Positions 406 to 12,104 of a DNA stretch of 31,688 nucleotides are shown here, one piece after another (within the stretch, counting starts at the first letter, position 1; the number at the start of each line of letters is the position of its first letter). Source of the stretch: an uncultured Ignavibacteriales bacterium (GTDB taxonomy: Bacteria; Bacteroidota; Ignavibacteria; Tepidaquicellales; OLB5); assembly GCA_964597425.1 (NCBI GenBank), contig CAZQYL010000001.1:17721-49408 (forward strand), read 5' to 3'. Made by a program: the position numbers and the translations under genes. The notes beneath the pieces are model-generated. The model was not told the origin of the DNA, searched no databases, and saw nothing but the letters and a program-made list of their open reading frames with translations.

Positions 406-1992
406 ATGAAAACTACAGTATTTACACTATTGTTAATCCTCACTTCATCCATATATTCACAATCATCTTATACCAATATTACCATAAGCGCAACAGGAGG
501 CCCGAATGAACCTTCAATTTGCGTTAATCCAAAAAATACAAACCAGGTTGTTGCCGGTGCCAACACAGATAAAGTTTACCGCTCTTCAGATGGCGGACAG
601 ACATGGATAAGCAGCACGCTTACCGGTACGTATACAGTATGGGGTGACCCATGTATTATTACCGATACAGTTGGTAATTTCTATTATTTCCATCTTGTAA
701 ACGGCGCCAGCTTTATTGACAGGATGGGCGTTAATAAATCTACTAATGCCGGTGCAACATGGAATGCAGGAACATACTGGCAGTTCAATACGCCTAAACA
801 GCAGGATAAAGAATGGGCGATCACAGATTTTACCCACGGTCCCCGCGGCAACTGGATCTATGTAGCCTGGACAGAATTTGACAATTATGGTTCAAGCAAT
901 CCAAATGACAGTTCAAGGATATTGTTTGCACGCTCAACCGATATGGGAGCTACATTTACCGGAATAAAAAGACTCAGCAGATTTGGCGGAAATTGTATCG
1001 ATGAAGATTACACCACTGAAGGCTCAGTACCTGCAGTTGGACCCAATGGAGAAGTTTATGTTGCATGGTCGGGTCCGCAGGGTTTAAACAATTTTAAACT
1101 GTTCTTTGATAAATCTACTGATGGCGGCACAACATGGCTTGAAAATGATGTAGTTGCAGGCACCCAGCGTGGCGGCTGGGATTATGTTGTTGCAGGTATT
1201 TACAGATCAAACGGTCTGCCAATCACACTTTGTGATATCAGCAATTCGCCATACCGCGGTACTATATACATTAATTATACTGATAGCGCAGGTCCGGCAG
1301 ATCATGATGTAATGGTAGTAAAGTCAACCGATGGCGGAAATACATGGAGTGCGCCGATAAGGATCAACGACGACCCCGCAGGAAAAGAACAGTTCTTCAC
1401 ATGGATGTCAATTGACCAGGTTACAGGTTACCTGTACTGTGTATTTTATGACAGAAGAAATTACACAAATACACAAACAGATGTTTACATAGCACGCTCA
1501 ACCAACGGCGGAACCACATGGACCAACGAAAGGATCAGCGCTGCGCCGTTTACACCCGCATCAAATATATTCTTTGGTGATTATACCAATATTTCATCAC
1601 ATAACGGTGTTGTAAGACCAATATGGATAAGGCTTGTTTCCGGTACCTTAAGTGTTTTGACCGCTATTATGAATTTCCCGGTAGGCGTTGAACCTGTTTC
1701 AACAGAAATTCCTGCTTCATTTAATTTAAGGCAGAACTATCCGAATCCGTTCAATCCGAATACAACATTTGAATTTGATATTCCGGCATTTACCGGAAGC
1801 GGTACACAGGATGTATCAATCAAGGTTTATGATATACTTGGTAACGAAACAGCAGTCATTGTAAACGGGAAACTCGCTCCGGGTTCCTATAAATACGAAT
1901 GGGATGCATCAATGCAGCCAAGTGGCGTGTATTTTTACAAAATGTTATCAGGCAGTTATTCAGAAACCAAAAAAATGATTTTAACAAAGTAA
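406..1992 (+). CDS. Secreted BNR/Asp-box (sialidase-like) beta-propeller protein with T9SS type-A C-terminal sorting domain
   Basis: N-terminal signal peptide; repeated Asp-boxes (SSDGGQTW, STNAGATW, STDMGATF, STDGGTTW, STDGGNTW, STNGGTTW); C-terminal QNYPNPFNPNT...SGVYFYKM...ETKKMILTK. Confidence 0.88.
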   Translation: MKTTVFTLLLILTSSIYSQSSYTNITISATGGPNEPSICVNPKNTNQVVAGANTDKVYRSSDGGQTWISSTLTGTYTVWGDPCIITDTVGNFYYFHLVNGASFIDRMGVNKSTNAGATWNAGTYWQFNTPKQQDKEWAITDFTHGPRGNWIYVAWTEFDNYGSSNPNDSSRILFARSTDMGATFTGIKRLSRFGGNCIDEDYTTEGSVPAVGPNGEVYVAWSGPQGLNNFKLFFDKSTDGGTTWLENDVVAGTQRGGWDYVVAGIYRSNGLPITLCDISNSPYRGTIYINYTDSAGPADHDVMVVKSTDGGNTWSAPIRINDDPAGKEQFFTWMSIDQVTGYLYCVFYDRRNYTNTQTDVYIARSTNGGTTWTNERISAAPFTPASNIFFGDYTNISSHNGVVRPIWIRLVSGTLSVLTAIMNFPVGVEPVSTEIPASFNLRQNYPNPFNPNTTFEFDIPAFTGSGTQDVSIKVYDILGNETAVIVNGKLAPGSYKYEWDASMQPSGVYFYKMLSGSYSETKKMILTK

Positions 1993-2036
1993 CCGGTTTA
2001 CTTTGAAAGTTAAATAACAACACACAGGAAAAATAG

Positions 2037-3314
2037 ATGATAAAAAACTTAATTTTAGTATTACTAATATTGCCCTCTATAATTCTATCGCAGTATAAAA
2101 ATATTAAAGTTAACTCTATCAATAACAGTCCTGAAGAAGTCTCAATCGCTATTAATCCCCGGCATCCCAATAACCTGGTTGCCGGGGCTAATATTAATAA
2201 TTACTACTATTCTTTTGATGGCGGCAACACCTGGACAAACAAGGAAATTGATGACAGTAAAAATGGTGTCTGGGGCGACCCGGTATTGATATTTGATAAC
2301 AACGGTGCAGCTTATTTCTTTCACCTTTCCAGACCCTCAAACAGCCAATGGATTGACAGAATTGTTTGCCAGAAATCTACCGATGGCGGTATGACATATG
2401 AAAACCCCGGGACATATATGGGGCTGAATCCGCCGAAAAAGCAGGATAAACCATGGGCCTGCGTTGATAACACCGAAAGCAAATGGCGGAACAATATCTA
2501 TGTTACATGGACCCAGTTTGATGCTTACGACAGCCACAGACCTGAAGATCTATCAAACATAATGTTCTCTTACAGTTCCGATGCAGGTGTTTCATGGAGC
2601 AATGCATTAAGGATCAACGAAATTTCCGGTGATTGTGTTGATTCATCAAATACAACAGAAGGCGCAGTTCCCTGCGTTGGACCTAACGGCGAAATTTATG
2701 TAAGCTGGTCTGCTCATGATAAGCTGTATTTCGATAGATCACTTGATGGCGGCGCGACGTGGCTTGATGCGGATATTCAGGCAGGTACTCAATACGGAGG
2801 CTGGGTTTATGATATTGAAGGAATTTTCAGATGTAACGGTTTACCAATTACCCAATGTGATATAAGTAATTCTCCCTATAAAGGAACAATATATATCAAT
2901 TATTCTGATAAAACGAACGGTGAAAAAGATGTGGATGTGTTTTTGGTCAGATCAACTGATGGCGGCAGCACATGGAGCGAAGCAATCCGTGTAAATGATG
3001 ACCCTGTTGGCAACGGTAAACAGCAGTTTATGAGCTGGATGTCGGTTGACCCTGTAACAGGCTCGGTAAATATAATTTATTACGATAGAAGAAATTACGA
3101 TGACTTAAGTACAGATGTTTACCTTGCAAGATCGACTGATGGCGGCACAACCTTTGAAAACTTAAAAATTTCGGAGTCACCTTTTACACCTGTGAAGAGT
3201 GTTTTCTTTGGTGACTATATCGGCGTTAATTCATACAATGATTTTACTGCCTGTATATGGCAGCGTCTTGATAAAGGCAAACTGAGCGTTATTTACGCCG
3301 GCAACAAATATTAA
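2037..3314 (+). CDS. Secreted BNR/Asp-box (sialidase-like) beta-propeller protein without T9SS CTD
   Basis: Signal peptide MIKNLILVLLILPSIILSQ; Asp-boxes SxDGGxT(W/F/Y); collinear with 406..1992 (WGDP, QDK(E/P)W, EGxVPxVGPNGE, RxNGLP, YDRRNY, FFGDY) but stops before any CTD. Confidence 0.88.
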   Translation: MIKNLILVLLILPSIILSQYKNIKVNSINNSPEEVSIAINPRHPNNLVAGANINNYYYSFDGGNTWTNKEIDDSKNGVWGDPVLIFDNNGAAYFFHLSRPSNSQWIDRIVCQKSTDGGMTYENPGTYMGLNPPKKQDKPWACVDNTESKWRNNIYVTWTQFDAYDSHRPEDLSNIMFSYSSDAGVSWSNALRINEISGDCVDSSNTTEGAVPCVGPNGEIYVSWSAHDKLYFDRSLDGGATWLDADIQAGTQYGGWVYDIEGIFRCNGLPITQCDISNSPYKGTIYINYSDKTNGEKDVDVFLVRSTDGGSTWSEAIRVNDDPVGNGKQQFMSWMSVDPVTGSVNIIYYDRRNYDDLSTDVYLARSTDGGTTFENLKISESPFTPVKSVFFGDYIGVNSYNDFTACIWQRLDKGKLSVIYAGNKY

Positions 3315-3350
3315 CTATTCTTTCACTCAATAAGTACTAAAAATTTACAA

Positions 3351-5132
3351 ATGGCAGAAGAACTTTTTCCTGAACATGATGGCTTCCTTGTAACAGCAAG
3401 GAAATGGAGACCCGGGCAGTTTGATGATGTGACTTCACAGGAATTCATTACTAAAACGCTGCGCAATGCGATAAAGAATAACAGGATATCTCATGCGTAC
3501 CTGTTTTCAGGTCCAAGAGGAGTAGGTAAAACCACCGTTGCCAGGCTTCTTGCTAAATCGCTTAACTGCATCAACAGGCAGCCTAACGGAGAGCCGTGCA
3601 ATGTGTGCGATAGCTGCCGCGAAATAACCAACGATAACCGCAATCACCCCGATGTATTTGAAATTGACGGCGCATCAAACAGGAATATCGAAGATGTACG
3701 GGAACTGAAAGAAAAGGTGAAATACGGTCCGGTTCGCTCCAAATACAAGATTTTTATCATTGATGAAGTTCATATGCTGACCGGGGCATCATTCAACGCC
3801 CTGCTTAAGACACTTGAAGAACCGCCGCCTTATGTAGTGTTCATTTTCGCAACTACATCTCCTGAGAAAGTACCTCTTACAATTCTTGGAAGATGTCAGA
3901 AATTCGATTTTAAGAGACTCACAATTGATGAAATATCCTCAAGATTGAAATTCATCGCAGGCGAAGAAAAAATTAAAGTTGATAACGAATCACTATTTTT
4001 TATTGCGAAAAAAGGTGATGGTTCTATGCGCGACGCGCAGGGATTATTCGATATGTCAGCCGCTTACTGCGATAACGATATATCATTTGAGAAATTGAAA
4101 TCATTTTTTAATCTCGCACAAAGTGATGTATACTTCACAATCTCTGACCTGGTTAAAAACAAAGACGCTAAAGGATTACTGAATTACTTCGATAGTCTTA
4201 TGGATAAGGGCTATGATATGCAGATATTTCTTGACGGACTTACCGAGCATTACAGGAATCTGTTAATAGTATGCTCAACCGGTTCAGCAGAGCTTATTAT
4301 TGAATCAGAATCAGTTAAACAAAAGTATGCCGAAAATATAAGTAAGTTCTCTCAGCTTGAAATAATTAACTCATTAAAGCTGATCTTGCAAACTGAATAT
4401 ACATTCAAATATTCATCCAATCAGCGCACGCTGATAGAAGCATTACTGGTTGAGCTTATTAAATTCACTGATACCCGCGATATATCTCAAATACTTGAAG
4501 AACTTAAAGAACTTGGCTCAGGCAGCTATTCCGGTGGCATCAAAAATACAGGCACAGTGCAGTCAGCAAGCCGTGTAAGCGCTCCTCTGAAGAATGAGAC
4601 CAGGGTGCAGGTAACTTATGAACAATCCGCTACTAAACAGCCTGCCGTTAAAATTGAACAGGAAAGTGTTTCGCAGGCAGTAAACGAAAATCCGGCCCCA
4701 ACTGTTAACTTTGATAGTGCTGAGGGTGACCTAAACACGCACTGGTTGAGCATTAAGGACCAGATTAAGACCGAACGCAAATGGGTATACAGCATAATTA
4801 AAGATACTACTTTTGAGCAGGATGAAAAGCGTAACCTGCTGATAAGAGTTGATGATACATCATTTGAACTGATTGACGGCTACAGGGACTACCTTGCAGG
4901 TAAAATATCGAAGTATTTCGGACAATCATTAAGCGTTGGGCTGGTAAAAAGCTCTGAGTTCATTTCCAGCAATTCAGGTATGCATTATGATGAGAGCAAT
5001 TACACAGAGCCCGGCGATGTAGAGATCAGCGAAACAAGAAAACCAGCACAGCCCGATAATTTTGATAAGATAAGAAGTATTTTGATAAAAGATTTTCACG
5101 GAAAAGAAATCAATACAAAAGATATTAACTGA
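3351..5132 (+). CDS. dnaX: DNA polymerase III subunit gamma/tau
   Basis: ARKWRP start motif, Walker A GPRGVGKTT, zinc module CxxxxxxxxxCxxCxxC, EIDGASN, Walker B IIDEVHML, FNALLKTLEEPP, arginine finger (GRCQ variant of SRC), GSMRDA. Confidence 0.97.
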   Translation: MAEELFPEHDGFLVTARKWRPGQFDDVTSQEFITKTLRNAIKNNRISHAYLFSGPRGVGKTTVARLLAKSLNCINRQPNGEPCNVCDSCREITNDNRNHPDVFEIDGASNRNIEDVRELKEKVKYGPVRSKYKIFIIDEVHMLTGASFNALLKTLEEPPPYVVFIFATTSPEKVPLTILGRCQKFDFKRLTIDEISSRLKFIAGEEKIKVDNESLFFIAKKGDGSMRDAQGLFDMSAAYCDNDISFEKLKSFFNLAQSDVYFTISDLVKNKDAKGLLNYFDSLMDKGYDMQIFLDGLTEHYRNLLIVCSTGSAELIIESESVKQKYAENISKFSQLEIINSLKLILQTEYTFKYSSNQRTLIEALLVELIKFTDTRDISQILEELKELGSGSYSGGIKNTGTVQSASRVSAPLKNETRVQVTYEQSATKQPAVKIEQESVSQAVNENPAPTVNFDSAEGDLNTHWLSIKDQIKTERKWVYSIIKDTTFEQDEKRNLLIRVDDTSFELIDGYRDYLAGKISKYFGQSLSVGLVKSSEFISSNSGMHYDESNYTEPGDVEISETRKPAQPDNFDKIRSILIKDFHGKEINTKDIN

Positions 5133-6028
5133 TGTCAAAGAATAAATACAGAACATTACCTTTAAAAAAGAACTTTCTAGCAATTGAAAAAGAGTATTCA
5201 ACTTATGAAAACTCCAAAGTAGTGATACTTTCCGCACCATACGAAAAGACCACATCATACGGCAAGGGTACCGCAAATGGTCCCGGTGCGATACTTGAAG
5301 CATCGCATTACGTGGAGTTTTTTGATGAGGAAACCGAAAAGGAAGTTTGTTTTGATATCGGCATTGCCGCAATTGAACCTATGAAATTCGGTAAGCTTAG
5401 CGGTAAAAAAGCACTGGAGCTTATATACGGGAATGTGAATGAACATATAAAGAACGGAAAATTTGTAATTACGCTTGGCGGTGAGCATTCCATAAGTACC
5501 GCGCCTATACAGGCGCATTTTGATAATTACCCCGAGCTATCTATCCTGCATTTTGACGCACATTCAGACCTGAGGGAGGAATACGAGGGTTCTAAGTACT
5601 CACATGCTTCATTTGCAGCAAGAGTCTCGGAATTCACAACAAACATAACACAGGTTGGTATACGTGCGCAATGTAAGGAAGAGTTTGAGTTCATAAAAGA
5701 AAAAGGCATAAACACATTCTACGCCTTTCAAATGCGCAATGAAGGTTTCAATCACATCCTTATAGAAAAGATACTTGGCACGCTTAGTAAAAATGTTTAT
5801 ATAACTTTTGATGTGGATTACTTCGATCCATCCATAATGCCCTCAACGGGCACACCCGAGCCTAACGGTTTTTATTGGGATGAGACAATGCGCCTGCTAA
5901 AAAGGGTGTGCGCTGAGAAAAATCTTGTGGGATTTGATGTGGTCGAGTTAGCTCCCCAAAAGGATTACACCTTCCCTGACTTCCTGACAGCTAAGCTGAT
6001 ATATAAGATATTGAATTATAAGTTTTGA
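5132..6028 (+). CDS. speB: Agmatinase (arginase/ureohydrolase family)
   Basis: Motifs PYEKTTSY..GT..GP, LGGEHS, HFDAHSDLR, SHA, TFDVDYFDPS..PSTGTPEPNG, DVVELAP. The substrate is assigned from family resemblance. Confidence 0.88.
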   Translation: MSKNKYRTLPLKKNFLAIEKEYSTYENSKVVILSAPYEKTTSYGKGTANGPGAILEASHYVEFFDEETEKEVCFDIGIAAIEPMKFGKLSGKKALELIYGNVNEHIKNGKFVITLGGEHSISTAPIQAHFDNYPELSILHFDAHSDLREEYEGSKYSHASFAARVSEFTTNITQVGIRAQCKEEFEFIKEKGINTFYAFQMRNEGFNHILIEKILGTLSKNVYITFDVDYFDPSIMPSTGTPEPNGFYWDETMRLLKRVCAEKNLVGFDVVELAPQKDYTFPDFLTAKLIYKILNYKF

Positions 6029-6089
6029 GCCGGTTTTCTTAGCGAAATTAGGGTAAAAAAACGTTCTTTTATAAGTCTTAGAAAATGAT

Positions 6090-6097
6090 TAATTTTG
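6090..6097 (+). promoter_or_regulatory. Candidate Bacteroidota-type -7 promoter box (TAATTTTG) for tRNA-Ser
   Basis: Exact TAnnTTTG match 25 nt upstream of the tRNA. No clear -33 TTTG at canonical spacing. Confidence 0.45.
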
Positions 6098-6122
6098 TCA
6101 ACTTTGAGCTAAATCATTGACC

Positions 6123-6212
6123 GGAGAGGTGGGTGAGTGGCTCAAACCAACGGTTTGCTAAACCGTCATAGGGGGTCAACCTCTATCGAGGGTTCGAATC
6201 CCTCCCTCTCCG
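6123..6212 (+). tRNA. tRNA-Ser (anticodon GCT), class II, CCA not encoded
   Basis: Acceptor stem GGAGAGG/CCTCTCC plus discriminator G; anticodon arm ACGGT-TTGCTAA-ACCGT (GCT at 6157-6159); long variable arm ATAGGGG-GTCAA-CCTCTAT; T arm GAGGG-TTCGAAT-CCCTC. Confidence 0.97.
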
Positions 6213-6222
6213 CAAGCATTTT

Positions 6223-6251
6223 AAAGCAAGTATGCAAATACTTGCTTTTTT
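6223..6251 (+). terminator. Intrinsic terminator downstream of tRNA-Ser
   Basis: AAAGCAAGTAT-GCAA-ATACTTGCTTT perfect stem with GNRA loop, running into a T tract. Confidence 0.85.
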
Positions 6252-6253
6252 AT

Positions 6254-6375
6254 TGGCTCAAACCATTCAGAGACTCCGGTCAAAACTGACATTAGGGTCA
6301 ACAATTATCGAGGGTTCTCCCAAAGGGACTCATTTATGTCCTTCGGACCTTCGGAGGAATCCCTCCCTCTCCGCA
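6254..6375 (+). pseudogene. tRNA-Ser-derived copy 1 (5'-truncated, anticodon arm replaced, 39-bp T-loop insert)
   Basis: Retains TGGCTCAAACCA (D region, identical to 6138-6149), GGGTCAA, TATCGAGGGTTC and the 19-bp 3' end; lacks the 5' acceptor strand. Confidence 0.8.
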
Positions 6376-6383
6376 AGCATTTT

Positions 6384-6412
6384 AAAGCAAGTATGCAAAT
6401 ACTTGCTTTTTT
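6384..6412 (+). terminator. Duplicate intrinsic terminator in repeat unit 2
   Basis: Identical to 6223-6251. Confidence 0.8.
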
Positions 6413-6414
6413 AT

Positions 6415-6536
6415 TGGCTCAAACCATTCAGAGACTCCGGTCAAAACTGACATTAGGGTCAATAACTATCGAGGGTTCTCCCAAAGGGACTCATTTATGT
6501 CCTTCGGACTTTCGGAGGAATCCCTCCCTCTCCGCA
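6415..6536 (+). pseudogene. tRNA-Ser-derived copy 2
   Basis: Near-identical to copy 1 (3 substitutions). Confidence 0.8.
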
Positions 6537-6584
6537 GAGTAACTTAAACCTGACAGGTTTTTTGTTTATATTAAAAATGTTATC

Positions 6585-6668
6585 GGGGTCAAAATCTACC
6601 ACGAGGGTTCTCCCAAAGGGACTCATTTATGTCCTTCGGACCTTCGGAGGAATCCCTTCCTCTAAGCA
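6585..6668 (+). pseudogene. tRNA-Ser-derived copy 3 (shorter, more diverged)
   Basis: GGGGTCAA...CGAGGGTTC + 39-bp insert (6611-6649, identical to copy 1) + GAATCCCTTCCTCTAAGCA (3 mismatches to the tRNA 3' end). Confidence 0.72.
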
Positions 6669-6674
6669 CAAATT

Positions 6675-6703
6675 AAACAAGGGGCATCAGCCCCTTGTTT
6701 TTT
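6675..6703. terminator. Intrinsic terminator, probably bidirectional, between the tRNA array and the convergent protease gene
   Basis: AAACAAGGGGC-ATCA-GCCCCTTGTTT followed by TTT. Confidence 0.82.
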
Positions 6704-6820
6704 ATGCCTCAATGGAATGTAGATTTACAAATTGTTTTAATCTTAATAAGGGGCATGATTTTCCAAATGTTGAGAGGACTTGGTTGACAGGTTTAAAAAC
6801 TGACACCATGTAGTTCCGTT

Positions 6821-8125
6821 CTACTTTTTAAAATCAACGTACATATCTTCAAAATTGAGTATCATTTCACTGAATTCACCCATGTAATCCTGCCCTAGAT
6901 TGCCAAAATAGCCCTTATCATGATCTTTGATATTTTCAGAAATCACTCTTACGTCATCAAGCTTAAGCTTTGAATTCCCTATTCTGAAAGCAATATTTTC
7001 AAGCCTGAATCCTTTAACCTTAATAGTACCGCCTGCCCCGCCGAACTCGATTTCTTCTATCTCGTATTTACTTTCAATTTTTGCTTTATTGCGCCTGTAA
7101 TATGATGAATAAAGCATAGTAGCTTTGGCACCGGTATCAAAGGTAAATGCGAGTGAATCATTTCCATCTATAACTTCAATTGAGGGAATGAAACCATCTA
7201 TCAGCATGTTTGAAAGTGTTCCGGGTGTCTTTTCTTTTGGTATGAATATTTCCTCTTTCCTGATATGAATTTCTTTCATTTCTTTGATGACAGGAAGTCC
7301 GATAATCCCGTTTATTACATAAAGCCCACCGGCAAAGCTTAATGATTCATCCGGCAAAACAAGGAAAAGTACATTGTGCAGTTTCATACTTCCTATCTCA
7401 AGCAGTTCTGCACAGGCAAGCTTTGATTTGATCTTTTTACCTGTAACTGAGCCTACTTCGATCTTTCCCTCAAGCATTCTGAGCTTCATCTTCTTTGCAT
7501 ATGTTTCATTAACCACGGAAAAATTTGCACCTGTATCAAAAATGAAATCTTCATTTACGCCGCCGCATTTTACAGGGATATTGATCAGTCCGGCCAGATC
7601 TTTTTTAAGGGGGATCTTTGAATCCCCGGTAATTTCAATGCTCTGTTTCTGAATATTCTCTGCAGCCTTCCAGATTATCATTGAATTCTTCATATCCTCA
7701 TCCTCAGCAGAATCAAGCAGAGTAGCATAATTCTGCAAAACATACTCAGTGCAGTACAGAGCATCTTTGTAATCAAACAAATTTACCGAGTTCTTCATTC
7801 TCGTTTCATAAAGCTGCATTTTTAGGGAATCGTGAAGCTCATTTCCGTACTTTTCAAGCACTTCTGATATAGTTCTGTTCGATTCAAAGTTCTTATGTCT
7901 CAGATTGAGTATCAGCGCATTAATGTATGTTCTTTCCCAGTCATTCAGTCCCGTATTATCATAATTTTCAGAGAACCTGAAAAGATCTTTATTCTCGAGT
8001 AGTTCAAGCAACACAATTAAATCATTACTTGCAGATAACTTTTCACGGCATGCTTGTCCTATAGAAATAAATTCTGCCGAAGTGCCGGCTGCCAATATTA
8101 ACATCAATAAAATAGTCAGTTTCAT
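6821..8125 (-). CDS. Secreted aspartyl protease with two retropepsin-like domains
   Basis: Two catalytic-type motifs FIFDTGANFSVV and FTFDTGAKATML, each followed by a downstream GIIG or GNLG flap/closing motif. The start is moved from 8203 to ATG 8125 (MKLTILLMLILAAG, a signal peptide); the upstream extension looks like AT-rich intergenic DNA. Confidence 0.85.
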   Translation of the reverse strand: MKLTILLMLILAAGTSAEFISIGQACREKLSASNDLIVLLELLENKDLFRFSENYDNTGLNDWERTYINALILNLRHKNFESNRTISEVLEKYGNELHDSLKMQLYETRMKNSVNLFDYKDALYCTEYVLQNYATLLDSAEDEDMKNSMIIWKAAENIQKQSIEITGDSKIPLKKDLAGLINIPVKCGGVNEDFIFDTGANFSVVNETYAKKMKLRMLEGKIEVGSVTGKKIKSKLACAELLEIGSMKLHNVLFLVLPDESLSFAGGLYVINGIIGLPVIKEMKEIHIRKEEIFIPKEKTPGTLSNMLIDGFIPSIEVIDGNDSLAFTFDTGAKATMLYSSYYRRNKAKIESKYEIEEIEFGGAGGTIKVKGFRLENIAFRIGNSKLKLDDVRVISENIKDHDKGYFGNLGQDYMGEFSEMILNFEDMYVDFKK

Positions 8126-8199
8126 GGTATTCTTATTTATACACAAAATTAATTTATTATAAGAGAAATCTATTGTAAAAAAGCGACATACGATCAAAT

Positions 8200-9015
8200 T
8201 CATTCTGCAACCAGGTACTTATGATCGATCAACTTCTGCCTGCTTTCAAATCCGGATGGCAGCATACCAAGGAACTCCCTGAATTCCCTGTAATAATGTG
8301 ATTGGTCATAATAACCTGATTCAACAAGTGTATCAAAATGCCTGAAATTATTCTTTACGAGTTTTCTGGTCACGTTGTGAAACCTAACCAAACGGCAAAA
8401 TTCCTTAGGAGTAAGCCCGGTTGCTTTTGCAAAATTCCTCTGAAATTGTCTGGGGCTGATTGGTAAACCGGAATATTCCTGTTCAAGCTTCAGAGATCCA
8501 TCACTATCTGTTATCTTTTCAATAATTGAAAAAACCGGATCTGCCGTAACTGAAAAACACTGCAGCTTTTCTTTCAGAAATCCATTAATAACAGATAACT
8601 TCTGAACAGTGTTCTTTGCATTTCTTAATGAAATTTTCAATTGTTTTATTTCCGGTGATGCTAATAGACTTTGCAGCTTTACAGCTTTATTTTTTGCTGC
8701 AAAAGGATCAATTAGGAATACTTTTTGAAAAACCGAGGGATGAAAACGGGTACCGATTGTTATCAGATAAGGTAAGTTCCTGAAAGGACAATTCGATAAA
8801 TTTGGTCCTGAAACATAGATCTCATTTTTTTCCTTTAACTGAGGAAAAGTAAAGATGAGTGAAGTTGTATAATCGGATAATAAGTGAAAATGAGTTTTAC
8901 TTCCTGTAAAAGAAGCGGATTCAAAAACCCAGAATTTTTCAACAGCATGCCGGAATTCTGCGGGAGGTGCGTATTCTTTATATTTGTATCCCCTGTTCTT
9001 ATCCGGTTTTGACAT
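8200..9015 (-). CDS. AraC/XylS family transcriptional regulator
   Basis: C-terminal double HTH (ISPRQFQRNFAKATGLTPKEFCRLVRF...GYYDQSHYYREFREFLGMLP); N-terminal YxEYxP..F...VE.FW domain typical of this AraC subfamily. Confidence 0.92.
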   Translation of the reverse strand: MSKPDKNRGYKYKEYAPPAEFRHAVEKFWVFESASFTGSKTHFHLLSDYTTSLIFTFPQLKEKNEIYVSGPNLSNCPFRNLPYLITIGTRFHPSVFQKVFLIDPFAAKNKAVKLQSLLASPEIKQLKISLRNAKNTVQKLSVINGFLKEKLQCFSVTADPVFSIIEKITDSDGSLKLEQEYSGLPISPRQFQRNFAKATGLTPKEFCRLVRFHNVTRKLVKNNFRHFDTLVESGYYDQSHYYREFREFLGMLPSGFESRQKLIDHKYLVAE

Positions 9016-9069
9016 ATACCAAAATTAGTTAACAGGGTCATTAAAAGAAATGGAATGATAACTGCGCTC

Positions 9070-9300
9070 TTAGAAATCCAGAAATCTGAGGTTTTTTTCA
9101 TATAATTCTGAAGTACCGACTCCGGTTTTAAATTCATTCCCTGCAGATGCCGCAGTTCTATCCATAGCTTCATCGAAGTTATGGATCAGGTTTTCCATTA
9201 CAAGATCTTTCCTGTTCCTTTCAGCTGCTGTTTTGCTGATCTCTTTTTCAAGATCGTTCAGTCTTCTTTCCAGTTCTTCCAAAAATGATGTATTTTTCAT
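9070..9300 (-). CDS. Small hypothetical protein (76 aa), probable coiled coil
   Basis: ORF fills the gap between the kinase and araC on the same strand; heptad-like LEELERRLNDLEKEI. I prefer ATG 9300 over 9351 because a TAnnTTTG box overlaps 9345-9352. Confidence 0.6.
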   Translation of the reverse strand: MKNTSFLEELERRLNDLEKEISKTAAERNRKDLVMENLIHNFDEAMDRTAASAGNEFKTGVGTSELYEKNLRFLDF

Positions 9301-9411
9301 ATTCTTATTTTCGTAAAAGTTAAAAAATTTCCGGGTAATAACTCCAAACATATCTTCGCAAGGGTAAAAAAAGCTATATTGTACTGCATTATTAAATGTG
9401 GGGACAATTAA

Positions 9412-10944
9412 TTAGGAGTAATGAAATCTTGTCTGATAATTACTTCCCCGGAAATTAATTTTATATTCTGTTCCGCCTTTTGACAGAAGTTCTATCCTGC
9501 CTTCAAGCTGACTTACCAGCATTTCAATCAAATGCATTCCAAAACTTACAACATGTCCGTTAACAATATTCATAGGAATTCCTACACCGTTATCCATATA
9601 TCTTAGCTCAAATTCATTTTCATTTGTTTTCAAAAGTGAAATTTCGATCTTACCTTTCCTTCCGCCGGGAAAACCGTGTTTAAGCGAGTTTGAAACTATT
9701 TCATTGATAAGCAGCCCAAAGGGCACAGCTGTTTCGATGGTAAACTCAACTTCTTCCGCATTTACTGAAATTGATATACTGTCTCTTTGTTCGCTGTAAC
9801 TTGCAAGCAATTGACTTGATAGCCCAAGAAGGTATTCCTGCATGTTTATCCTTGCCATATCGGTTGACCTGTACAAATGCTGATGAATAAGCGCCATTGA
9901 TCGTACCCTGTTTTGGCTTATTGTAAGCTGTGATTTCAGTTTAACATCATCAACTGTTGTAGATTGAAGATTAAGCAGACTTATTACAATCTGCAGATTG
10001 TTCTTAACCCTGTGATGAATTTCTTTAAGCATTATCTCTTTTTCTTCGAGGCTTTGCTCTAGCCTTTTGGTGATATTTTTCTCCCTGGTAATATCATCCT
10101 TTATGGCTATAAAGTTTGTGATAAGATCATTTTCATCTACTACGGGTGTGATCTTTATACGTTCCCAATAAAGCTCACCTGATTTTTTCTTATTTTTAAT
10201 CTCTCCCTGCCATACATTTCCTGTCAGGATTGTTGTCCACAAATCTTTATATGTCTCATTTTCTGTAGATTCGGATCGGAGTATATCAGGATTCCCGCCG
10301 AGCGCTTCCTGTTTGGTATAGCCGGTAAGATCGGCAAATTTTTTGTTAACGTATTCAATTTTTCCGTTTATATCGGTAATAACAATTGTATTAGAAGACT
10401 GTTCAACAGCGGCAGTAAGCCTCTTAATATTCTTTTCGGATTCTATCCTCAAGGTCATATCGCGGGAAATTATCACAATATTTTTATTTCTCTCATTTTC
10501 ATACTTTGAACCCGCAGACTCGAGGTAAATGTAATTTCCGTCAGCCTTTCTGAAACGGTATGAACTAATGATCGATTTTCCGGGTGAATAAAGTCCGCGC
10601 CTGAAATCTTCCGTCACACGTTTCAAGTCATCTTTATGTATGAACCCAAAAGCACATTGCCCTACAAGTTCATCTTTCTTGTATCCAAGCATCTTTTCAA
10701 TAGAATCGCTTTCATATAAAATTATCCCGTCCTGAGATAAAACTGTGATAATATCGGTTGAAAGATTCAGAAGTGACTTAAGTACTTCATCTGAAATTGT
10801 TCGGTTATGGTTCCTGTTGTTGCTCAGAGATGAACTTTTGCGTAAAATACCTACATCATTACCTGTCACTGCTCCTGACAAGTAATCGAGGGAACCTGAA
10901 GAAGTTTCTTCAAGATAAATTATTTTATTTAGTGCCTGCTGCAT
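9412..10944 (-). CDS. Cytoplasmic PAS-PAS sensor histidine kinase, HisKA_2/HWE-like class
   Basis: Two PAS/PAC domains; H-box [12 protein letters not shown]; HATPase NEIVSNSLKHGF and DNGVGIP. The ORF is open to 10992; ATG 10944 is chosen to minimise overlap with the upstream gene, so the start is uncertain. Confidence 0.92.
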   Translation of the reverse strand: MQQALNKIIYLEETSSGSLDYLSGAVTGNDVGILRKSSSLSNNRNHNRTISDEVLKSLLNLSTDIITVLSQDGIILYESDSIEKMLGYKKDELVGQCAFGFIHKDDLKRVTEDFRRGLYSPGKSIISSYRFRKADGNYIYLESAGSKYENERNKNIVIISRDMTLRIESEKNIKRLTAAVEQSSNTIVITDINGKIEYVNKKFADLTGYTKQEALGGNPDILRSESTENETYKDLWTTILTGNVWQGEIKNKKKSGELYWERIKITPVVDENDLITNFIAIKDDITREKNITKRLEQSLEEKEIMLKEIHHRVKNNLQIVISLLNLQSTTVDDVKLKSQLTISQNRVRSMALIHQHLYRSTDMARINMQEYLLGLSSQLLASYSEQRDSISISVNAEEVEFTIETAVPFGLLINEIVSNSLKHGFPGGRKGKIEISLLKTNENEFELRYMDNGVGIPMNIVNGHVVSFGMHLIEMLVSQLEGRIELLSKGGTEYKINFRGSNYQTRFHYS

Positions 10945-11341
10945 CTGCAGATTCTTCTGAACTTTCTTTTGATTTTTGTTTTGTTCTTTCATTTAACACA
11001 TCATACACCTTCTCAAACTCCATAGCTTTATCGAAAAAATGCATTGCTCCAAGGTTTTTGCATTTATCCCTGTAGTATTGGTAGTTTAGATTGGAAAGTA
11101 CAATTACATAAGGCTTAAAATCGAAATGCGAAATTTCTTCAAGCACTTTTATACCGTGACCGTATTTAAGAGAAATATCCAGGATAACATAGTCAGGATG
11201 CAATTCCTTTATCAGCTTAACGGCTGTATATCCGTCTGAAGCACGTCCATCTATCCTGATTTTTTCAAGAGGTTCCAGCAGTTTAGTCAGTTTTTGAACA
11301 ACCAGATCAGAATCTTCGACAATCAGCATGTTGTAAGGCAT
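10925..11341 (-). CDS. Single-domain response regulator (receiver only)
   Basis: LIVEDS, phosphoacceptor ILDISL, VLSN and FFDK motifs; no output domain. Confidence 0.9.
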   Translation of the reverse strand: MPYNMLIVEDSDLVVQKLTKLLEPLEKIRIDGRASDGYTAVKLIKELHPDYVILDISLKYGHGIKVLEEISHFDFKPYVIVLSNLNYQYYRDKCKNLGAMHFFDKAMEFEKVYDVLNERTKQKSKESSEESADAAGTK

Positions 11342-11362
11342 TTAATTATAAATTTCTTACTA

Positions 11363-11370
11363 CAAATATA
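11363..11370 (-). promoter_or_regulatory. Candidate -7 box (TATATTTG) for the receiver-only gene
   Basis: Exact TAnnTTTG on the minus strand, 21 nt upstream of ATG 11341. Confidence 0.4.
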
Positions 11371-11459
11371 TCGTGAATTGAGAGAATTTTGTAAGAGCAG
11401 AAAGTATGAATTGACTGTAGTTAATTATGTTACAGAGAAGAGTACTAAATATTTGTTTT

Positions 11460-12104
11460 TTAATCAATTAAGTTATTATGCATCGCATACTGGGTAAGTT
11501 CTACATTTGAATTCATATTTAGTTTCTCAAGTATCCGTGCCCTGTACGTGTTAACCGTATGAACGCTGATAGAAATCTCAGAAGCAATATCAACGGCCTT
11601 TTTGCCGGAAGCGATCTTTATGAATACCTCGTATTCGCGGTCAGATAGAAGTTCGTGCGGCTGCTTATCCATATCATCAGAAAGAATATCAGCCAGTTTT
11701 TCTGCCAATGCCTTACTTACATATTTCCGTCCGGTAAGAACCGTCCTGATTGCTTTAACCAGTTCATCAGGCGCGCTTTCTTTGGTAAGATAACCGGCAG
11801 CGCCGGCTTTAAGCGCTCTAATGGCAAAGCGGTCTTCAGGATGCATGCTCAGGATCAATATGCGGTATTTCTTTTTCATAGCTTTAAGATCTTTAAGCAC
11901 TTCAAGCCCGCTTTTGCCAGGCATAGATATATCCATAATGACAACATCCGGTTCCAGGTCCTTAATTATTGCCATGGCTTCATTTGCATTAGAGGCCTCA
12001 CCAACGATCTTCATATCGATTTCATCCTGAATGGTTTTCTTTATTCCCTCTCTCAAAAACGCATGATCATCTGCTATAACTATACTAACTATTTTTTCTT
12101 CCAT
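11460..12104 (-). CDS. NarL/FixJ family response regulator (REC + LuxR HTH)
   Basis: IADDHAFLREG, VIMDISMPGKSGLE, LSMHPED, GAAGYLTK; HTH LSDREYEVF...IASEISISVHTVNTYRARILEKL. Confidence 0.96.
   Translation of the reverse strand: MEEKIVSIVIADDHAFLREGIKKTIQDEIDMKIVGEASNANEAMAIIKDLEPDVVIMDISMPGKSGLEVLKDLKAMKKKYRILILSMHPEDRFAIRALKAGAAGYLTKESAPDELVKAIRTVLTGRKYVSKALAEKLADILSDDMDKQPHELLSDREYEVFIKIASGKKAVDIASEISISVHTVNTYRARILEKLNMNSNVELTQYAMHNNLID

Follow-up and report, generated by a model that had tools for sequence, protein, structure and literature searches.

Behind the intact tRNA-Ser(GCU) gene of the window, i.e. the whole 31,688-nucleotide stretch that was analysed, lie three units that we interpret, with a probability of about 0.7, as dead copies of this tRNA left by a small selfish tRNA-gene cassette of Ignavibacteria and neighbouring phyla. 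A full cassette would consist of a gene for a single-domain GIY-YIG nuclease of about 80 amino acids, co-oriented with a tRNA and tightly abutting it, and of a whole or partial spare copy of that tRNA, in which short hairpin modules interrupt the loops, and its outcome would be one intact tRNA and one disabled copy side by side. At the locus in the window the nuclease gene would have been lost, or would never have been there in this lineage, so that the disabled copies alone remain, and the array probably consists of one old unit and a newer unit duplicated in tandem. The array and the tRNA next to it were resolved into the following features.

6123 to 6213, plus strand: intact tRNA-Ser(GCU), the functional copy adjoining the array (ARAGORN; Rfam tRNA, 59.6 bits)
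6223 to 6254, plus strand: terminator-like hairpin and T run 3' of the intact tRNA, recurring at 6384-6409 within the 161-bp duplication
6256 to 6375, plus strand: pseudo-tRNA-Ser(GCU) unit 1, from comparison with the tRNA, the repeats and the orthologous units in congeners G019 and G020
6318 to 6356, plus strand: compound module copy 1, the exact 39-mer, from family comparison with plain and nested forms
6384 to 6415, plus strand: terminator-like hairpin and T run 3' of unit 1
6417 to 6536, plus strand: pseudo-tRNA-Ser unit 2, the tandem duplicate of unit 1 (161-bp period, 98% identity)
6479 to 6517, plus strand: compound module copy 2, with one mismatch, C>T at 6510
6545 to 6566, plus strand: short hairpin AACCTGACAGGTT and T run between units 2 and 3, conserved in G020
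6583 (approximate start) to 6668, plus strand: pseudo-tRNA-Ser unit 3, older and shorter, from the variable arm onward, ortholog of the distal unit of G020
6611 to 6649, plus strand: compound module copy 3, identical to copy 1 despite diverged flanks
6675 to 6706, plus strand: distal terminator AAACAAGGGGC...GCCCCTTGTTT and T run, common to G019 and G020

In all three units the T-arm, GAGGGTTC followed by GAATCCCTC, is split between C56 and G57 and no target bases are duplicated. Units 1 and 2 keep the D-loop remnant TGGCTCAAACCA and an intact 3' acceptor strand; the 5' acceptor strand is missing, decayed or scrambled hairpin sequence stands in place of the anticodon arm, and the variable arm is degenerate. 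In unit 3 the 3' acceptor strand has decayed to CCTCTAAGCA and the flanks are unlike those of units 1 and 2. Each unit has its own terminator-like hairpin and T run at its 3' end, and spare, hairpin-interrupted tRNA copies are found here beside an intact tRNA of the same identity (window 6123-6668). Terminators alone separate the units, with no island DNA between tRNA-Ser and its 3' repeats, and 5' of the units no promoter-like site rose above background. The eight ORFs flanking the array (window 406-12104) include dnaX, an arginase-family protein, an aspartyl protease, an AraC regulator and a PAS histidine kinase, and no integrase domain was found among them. An Rfam search at a permissive threshold of the window locus and three full cassettes returned tRNA matches and noise and left the module unmatched. 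Since no GIY-YIG ORF was found in the array, we file it as an ORF-less relic or derivative and not as a full member of the family.

The preliminary description of this DNA had reported three copies of a 39-mer between TTC and GAAT without target duplication, and indeed these were found at 6318-6356, 6479-6517 (one mismatch) and 6611-6649, where 100 shuffles give an expected count of 0. The layout of the 39-mer is TCCCAAAGGGA CTC (ATTTAT GTCC-TTC-GGAC) C-TTC-GGAG. In copy 1, hairpin 1 (TCCC-AAA-GGGA) occupies 6318-6328, the arms of an outer hairpin 2 occupy 6329-6331 (CTC) and 6349-6356 (C-TTC-GGAG), and a nested mini-module, made of a decayed ATTTAT and the hairpin GTCC-TTC-GGAC, fills 6332-6348. 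The first 14 bases, hairpin TCCC-RAA-GGGA plus CTC, are the start of a 22-nt module that recurs widely, and the 39-mer, which had been taken for the unit, is a compound: within this 22-nt module a second mini-module is nested after the CTC of hairpin 2, and the first hairpin of the inner one has decayed.

The exact 39-mer occurs nowhere in the own genome outside the window locus, no other locus was found at up to 3 mismatches in 60 relatives, and its 26-nt core gave no other locus in JGI metagenome contigs. This uniqueness would wrongly suggest a one-off, as the shorter core reveals a family. A single chance insertion into one pseudo-tRNA, followed by tandem amplification and without wider meaning, would agree with the confinement of the exact 39-mer to the window locus and with the 98% identity of units 1 and 2 over a 161-bp tandem duplication, but the module core stands at the same T-loop position in other tRNAs of the own genome and in well over 100 other genomes, and the ortholog of unit 3 in G020 bears a different version of the compound module. 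We give this explanation next to no weight; for the module it is refuted, and it holds for the duplication of unit 1 into unit 2 alone. The preliminary description had itself named a single-locus accident as the outcome that would overturn its proposal, and what was found instead is the module at other tRNAs and in other genomes, together with empty alleles.

The plain module of 22 nt reads TCCC-RAA-GGGA and then CTCC-NNN-GGAG, i.e. two 4-bp hairpins with 3-nt loops. It stands directly before the 3' half of the T-loop in 118 of 163 non-redundant units (GAATCC in 81), and the T stem is kept at 5/5 pairs in 92 of these 118 plain-module units. In a structure alignment of 97 distinct module-bearing units the two-hairpin model paired 96.7% of the cells, whereas controls with slid partners paired no more than 64%. 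Hairpin 2 was paired at 97.2% and showed compensated changes in three pairs out of four (CTCT/AGAG, TTCC/GGAA, TTAC/GTAA and CTCG/CGAG); hairpin 1 was the search pattern, and its invariance in the sample is by ascertainment. A single long hairpin for the 22-nt module was rejected, with 86% of pairs formed versus 97-100% and no covariation between R5 and N18. The fold energy of the 39-mer and of whole units fell within the shuffle range (z -0.5 to -1.8), and because folding is no better than in shuffles, the hairpin reading of the insert, which had been proposed from the 39-mer itself, stands on the pairing across the 97 units of the family and not on energy.

Longer inserts were also found, in which a second mini-module is nested either behind the CTC of hairpin 2 or behind the TTC loop (L095, L046, L015, L025, L027 and L031). 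Besides the T-loop, modules occupy the junction of T-stem and acceptor between positions 65 and 66 (C85, L006, L026), a D-arm (L030), the loop of an unrelated palindrome (own C18:9402) and one other intergenic place (own C61:8651), and the left flanks at these non-T-loop sites have no fixed tetranucleotide in common. At the anticodon position of many dead copies there is a related hairpin of the form TCCCG...CGGGA, and one dead tRNA copy can bear several modules, in the D-arm, the anticodon loop, the T-loop and between positions 65 and 66. The module lies on the tRNA sense strand only, and the inverted form, with ...GGGA joined to GAATC, is at most rare.

Within the genus, 13 of 20 genomes contain the junction of GGTTC with TCCCRAAGGGAC at up to one mismatch, with controls near zero, and the own genome contains it at 7 places. 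Two other genera of the same family have it as well, as does a single genome among 31 of the sister family. An exact scan for the module junction in one genome per prokaryotic species gave at least 116 stretches. Among the matches listed, most belong to Ignavibacteria (Ignavibacteriaceae, Melioribacteraceae, Rosettibacter and Stygiobacter), other carriers are Kryptonia, Marinimicrobia, Calditrichia and Chitinophagales, and a few Streptomyces matches are obvious chance. The hairpin TCCCAAAGGGA recurs in T-loops on four other contigs of the own genome.

Contig C2: module behind tRNA-Val(UAC)
Contig C37: module behind tRNA-Pro(CGG)
Contig C85: modules in the T-loop and between positions 65 and 66 of a tRNA copy whose 5' part is cut by the contig start
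Start of contig C32: module in a complete tRNA-Glu(UUC)

Over the own genome and its congeners, spare copies representing at least 8 tRNA identities have the module in the T-loop between C56 and G57, and module units adjoin, on either side, an intact tRNA of the same identity for Ser-GCU, Ser-GGA, Val, Pro, Leu, Arg, Gly and Glu. The expectation that other tRNA relics would show TTC on the left and GAA on the right was borne out for the module family, in one orientation.

Empty and filled alleles, which the preliminary description had proposed to look for, were observed at two tRNAs. The tRNA-Glu(UUC) on C32 equals its ortholog in 9 congeners base for base, terminator included, except for the 22-nt module between TTC and GAA. 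At the tRNA-Ser(GCU) locus the whole array is absent from congeners G004 and G011, G014 and G002 carry a GIY-YIG ORF and a remodelled 3' fragment, and G019, G020, G001, G003 and G005 carry module arrays free of this ORF. The copy on C32 is also the only tRNA-Glu(UUC) sequence in the assembly, and being perfect apart from the module it fits an explanation in which the insert is a T-loop intron, or a tolerated expansion of working tRNAs, that is handled at the RNA level. In-silico excision likewise restored a full cloverleaf (ARAGORN) in 14 of the 163 units. However, the other 149 are fragmentary or remodelled, and an intact tRNA of the same identity lies within 1.5 kb of 10 of the 14 full-length units, a count that takes in two tRNA-Val-derived units left unassigned by ARAGORN. 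Contig C32 begins at tRNA base 1 and the conserved tRNA-Glu leader is absent from the assembly, so that a second copy upstream is likely; a search for the missing upstream sequence with the C32 junction gave no match in the metagenome scan. Against the intron also stands the state of the assembly, which at 2.97 Mb is 70% complete and holds 16 tRNAs, and we know of no tRNA splicing endonuclease in bacteria. We consider an intron or tolerated expansion highly improbable.

The insert had been described as better conserved than its flanks, and the comparison of units agrees. Unit 1 and unit 3 of the window share 39/39 positions of the module, 32/53 of the left flank and 21/30 of the right flank, whereas unit 3 and its distal ortholog, unit 2 of G020, share 48/50 of the left flank and 31/41 of the module. 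With orthologous flanks around differing modules and paralogous flanks around identical ones, the module has been copied between units within the genome, which accounts for an insert better conserved than its surroundings; the module is homogenised within the genome while the flanks stay orthologous. In the cassette reading, the identity of the 39-mer across diverged units would come from such non-reciprocal copying, by gene conversion or re-insertion, and not from recent age.

The recurrent companion of the module is a small nuclease. Just before the 3' fragment with the module, several congeners have an ORF of about 80 amino acids that matches PF01541 (E 1e-12 to 1e-16), and an HMM built from five module-adjacent ORFs was searched within a radius of 900 nt around the 163 units. 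A GIY-YIG ORF was found within this distance of 59 of the 163, in every case co-oriented with the unit, its stop codon typically 12-40 nt 5' of GGTTC or its start 55-110 nt 3' of the unit. It was absent within 900 nt of the remaining 104, and the module may therefore spread or persist alone. Two layouts recur, one running from an intact tRNA through the nuclease gene to a 3' fragment with the module, the other from a full-length module copy through the nuclease gene to an intact tRNA. Starting from the nuclease instead, a sample of 33 distinct small GIY-YIG ORFs from the genus contained about 24 with a co-oriented tRNA within 450 nt, and some of these ORFs take their stop codon from the tRNA's own U8-A9-G10.

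The associated ORFs are mostly 80-90 amino acids long and consist of the catalytic domain alone, with no DNA-binding domain joined to it. The catalytic Y, Y-G, R, H-N and E are conserved across 66 GIY-YIG ORFs, the only Pfam match is PF01541, there is no NCBIfam match, and the closest solved structures are the UPF0213 proteins of PDB entries 1zg2 and 1ywl. In a tree of the 66 ORFs, 34 of 45 module-adjacent nucleases fall into one clade (SH-aLRT 97) that spans several phyla and is separate from same-genus nucleases bearing other hairpin types. The module label changes 9 times on this tree versus 17.9 times in shuffles, which, with the uneven sampling, indicates clustering and not strict co-evolution. 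A nuclease of this clade was found neither in the array nor in the own assembly at its 70% completeness, and for that reason the relic status of the window array is inferred from the congeners.

The nearest known arrangement is that of SsnA of Neisseria meningitidis, a single-domain GIY-YIG nuclease of 94 amino acids (Chenal et al. 2025; PMC11893778). The Ssn genes are flanked by oriented NTS/SRM hairpin repeats, hairpin binding by the proteins is confined to single-stranded DNA, with cleavage a few nucleotides upstream, and the authors remark that the NTS-ssnA-NTS layout looks like a mobile element (PMC11893778). Both systems have a tiny single-domain GIY-YIG protein, 94 amino acids in Ssn and about 80 here, whose catalytic Tyr, Tyr and Glu are similarly spaced; each gene has short oriented hairpin repeats at its flanks, which are found in places without the gene too, and in both the nuclease clade and the hairpin type correspond. 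The differences are that tRNA is unmentioned in PMC11893778, whereas here the hairpins lie in the loops of spare tRNA copies and the gene abuts a tRNA; that the SRM consensus has 0 matches in the window and 8 in the 2.97-Mb genome; and that the nuclease described here is nearest to the UPF0213 structures. On account of these three differences we regard Ssn as a resemblance in working principle rather than as demonstrated membership of one family.

The preliminary description had read the insert as a mobile element that targets TTCGAA or T-loops by HUH (Y1/RAYT) or integrase chemistry. A discrete family of T-loop inserts with filled and empty alleles supports the first half of that proposal in part; the chemistry found no support. 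A non-autonomous miniature element moved by an HUH transposase of the Y1/RAYT or IS200/IS605 type, or by a tyrosine integrase targeting TTCGAA or T-loops, would explain insertion in one orientation, without target duplication, by hairpins and into hairpin loops, as seen in the T-loop, the palindrome loop at C18:9402 and the module's own hairpin 2. This recalls insertion of the IS200/IS605 type, which is single-stranded. Such insertion has also been discussed for Ssn (PMC11893778). However, the genome holds a single Y1 hit (PF01797), which has an internal stop, lies unlinked on contig C326 and has no module within 2 kb, and the eight ORFs scanned around the array gave no integrase domain. The left flanks of non-T-loop sites, which lack a common fixed tetranucleotide, also argue against this chemistry, and the neighbour that recurs, at 59 of 163 units and always co-oriented, is the GIY-YIG nuclease of about 80 amino acids and not the RAYT/IS200-type or recombinase gene that was expected between the same hairpins. 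HUH or integrase mobilisation is, in our judgement, very unlikely.

The likeness to REP/BIME-RAYT and IS200/IS605 systems lies in short oriented palindromic repeats, a single-strand hairpin logic, the lack of target duplication and a large excess of copies without the gene over copies with it; these systems differ in belonging to the HUH and not the GIY-YIG superfamily, with no Y1 gene associated here, and in using generic intergenic sites where the modules described here use tRNA loops. Tyrosine-integrase islands at tRNA genes create a direct repeat of the tRNA 3' part, and the T-loop is one class of crossover site. Here too the 3' part of a tRNA is repeated directly beside the intact gene, but integrase and island are both lacking, a distance of 130-160 bp separates the repeats, and the centre of the T-loop holds extra hairpin DNA, an addition that does not arise by integrase crossover.

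GIY-YIG homing endonucleases bind DNA through a separate domain (PMC3664794). SegB is described as a GIY-YIG homing endonuclease in the tRNA gene cluster of phages T4 and T6 that cuts in the tRNA region, drives preferential inheritance and promotes tandem segmental amplification of a tRNA-containing segment (PMC2330249, PMC13096335). The likeness is that of a GIY-YIG gene among tRNA genes and of a tandem amplification that resembles the stacked units described here. SegB itself has a separate DNA-binding domain and is a phage protein, whereas the gene described here lies on the chromosome and codes for nothing beyond the catalytic domain, and it is accompanied by conserved hairpin modules and split tRNA copies.

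The single strand, the terminators and the pairing of the modules also bear on an explanation in which the units encode functional small RNAs resembling tRNA and the hairpin inserts are selected RNA modules that block tRNA action, for example in decoys of, or partners or antidotes for, the GIY-YIG protein or tRNA-cutting enzymes. Each unit indeed has its own terminator-like hairpin and T run, the module keeps strictly to the tRNA sense strand, and compensated changes preserve the pairing of hairpin 2 and of the anticodon-position hairpins, although compensated hairpins are equally expected of recognition on single-stranded DNA. Repeat arrays are a property of type III toxin-antitoxin systems, and the short tandem unit arrays that adjoin the nuclease gene in L076, L063 and L119 recall them. 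However, the units of the window are without the 5' acceptor strand, their variable arm and anticodon-position hairpin have decayed, and unit 3 is without an intact 3' acceptor strand; the locus is empty in G004 and G011 and hence dispensable in congeners. The folding within the shuffle range, the lack of an Rfam family match and the lack of a promoter-like site above background weigh in the same direction. Functional RNA genes are therefore an unlikely account of the units.

Returning to the cassette, its mode of action can be sketched by analogy with Ssn. The module would be the recognition hairpin of its cognate nuclease, and breaks made by the nuclease at or near the junction of TTC and GAA would be repaired from a cassette-bearing copy in a homing-like manner, a repair that would both spread the cassette and stack units in tandem; later loss of the ORF would leave arrays like that of the window. 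Several points stand against this model. Most of the units, 104 of 163, have no nuclease ORF nearby. A hydrolytic GIY-YIG nuclease cannot itself join DNA; the logic by which an insertion destroys the homing site fails to give immunity, because an intact, presumably still cleavable tRNA is regenerated beside each cassette; and the several modules in one dead copy require nested insertions if a single cassette end is assumed. It is possible, but doubtful, that the 22-nt module is itself mobile and is copied into the loops of hairpin DNA through a cognate GIY-YIG nuclease acting on single strands, with tRNA T-, D- and anticodon loops, other palindromes and its own hairpin 2 as candidate targets. 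Such mobility would be compatible with the precise 22-nt insertion in tRNA-Glu(UUC), with the nested forms and with the homogenisation within the genome, and a mobile module of 22 nt would be, to our knowledge, among the smallest insertion elements. If this held, it would also be the first insertion element mobilised by a GIY-YIG enzyme.

Single-domain GIY-YIG nucleases associated with hairpins are already known, and so are free-standing GIY-YIG elements located at tRNA genes; GIY-YIG cassettes resident in chromosomal tRNA genes, and likewise hairpin modules in T-loops, were not found described in the searchable literature, which is largely without subscription journals. For annotation, the units should be marked as pseudo-tRNAs or cassette relics, and neither as tRNAs nor as integrase att sites. 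If the pairing of nuclease and hairpin is true, it would supply new sequence- and structure-specific nucleases as tools and would account for many so far unexplained pseudo-tRNA arrays and for assembly breaks that fall at tRNA genes of metagenome-assembled genomes. Furthermore, it would extend hairpin-guided GIY-YIG nucleases of the Ssn type to a tRNA-resident, possibly mobile form across the FCB group. Since tRNA genes are among the most conserved DNA, an element that lands in tRNA loops is hard to escape by mutation of the target, and the family appears to solve the lethality of such a landing by always leaving a working tRNA beside the copy that the hairpin disables.

Two unusual stop-codon placements were seen among the small GIY-YIG open reading frames at tRNA genes. 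At intact tRNA-Asp or tRNA-Ala genes in four congener genomes (loci L182, L192, L197 and L199, from G011, G006, G015 and G020, respectively), a small GIY-YIG ORF overlaps the 5' end of the tRNA and its stop codon is the conserved tRNA U8-A9-G10 (TAG). At contig C346 of the genome itself and at loci L205 and L190, the stop codon lies within the loop of a TCCCG...CGGGA hairpin. Stacking was observed among loci L039, L119, L102, L047, L076 and L063. Some have cassettes in tandem, in which a GIY-YIG ORF recurs every ~340-416 nt, at most three times in all; others have ORF-less, module-bearing fragments of 64-78 nt in 4-5 repeats.

A second conserved motif, ...ACTRCGCTAAAGCTTCGT...GCAGGC, was found immediately after the 3' end of the tRNA or after the fragment of it (L160 from G014, L165 from G002, L170 from G003, and L004/L086). 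The cassettes bearing it are without the TCCCRAAGGGAC module, and it may represent the hairpin of a different cassette subtype.

In the window, the product of the gene immediately downstream of the array has a retropepsin-like aspartyl protease domain (PF13650/PF13975), and the gene keeps this position in the congeners whatever the state of the tRNA locus:

6821-8203, minus strand, gene for a 460-aa protein

The full 22-nt module also occurs in the genome at two sites that are not in any tRNA:

C18:9402, minus strand, full module
C61:8651, plus strand, full module

The copy on contig C18 sits in the loop of the palindrome CCCCTCTCC...GGGGAGGGG, and TCCCAAAGGGA forms the centre of further hairpins that are broadly similar (C18:3608, C323:498 and locus L166). 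A separate note on the window (6254-30707) proposes that small hairpin inserts of a similar kind also occur in proteins, within the loops of their T9SS C-terminal domains.

One further copy of the module interrupts an otherwise complete tRNA, at TTC|GAA:

C32:1-95 (locus L207:1-95), complete tRNA-Glu(UUC) with the 22-nt module

Apart from the module, its sequence is the same as that of the single tRNA-Glu(UUC) orthologue in nine congeners, and the assembly contains no other tRNA-Glu(UUC) sequence. The first base of contig C32 is base 1 of this tRNA. There are two readings: the assembly has a gap that hides a second, intact copy, or the T-loop of an essential tRNA contains an insert.
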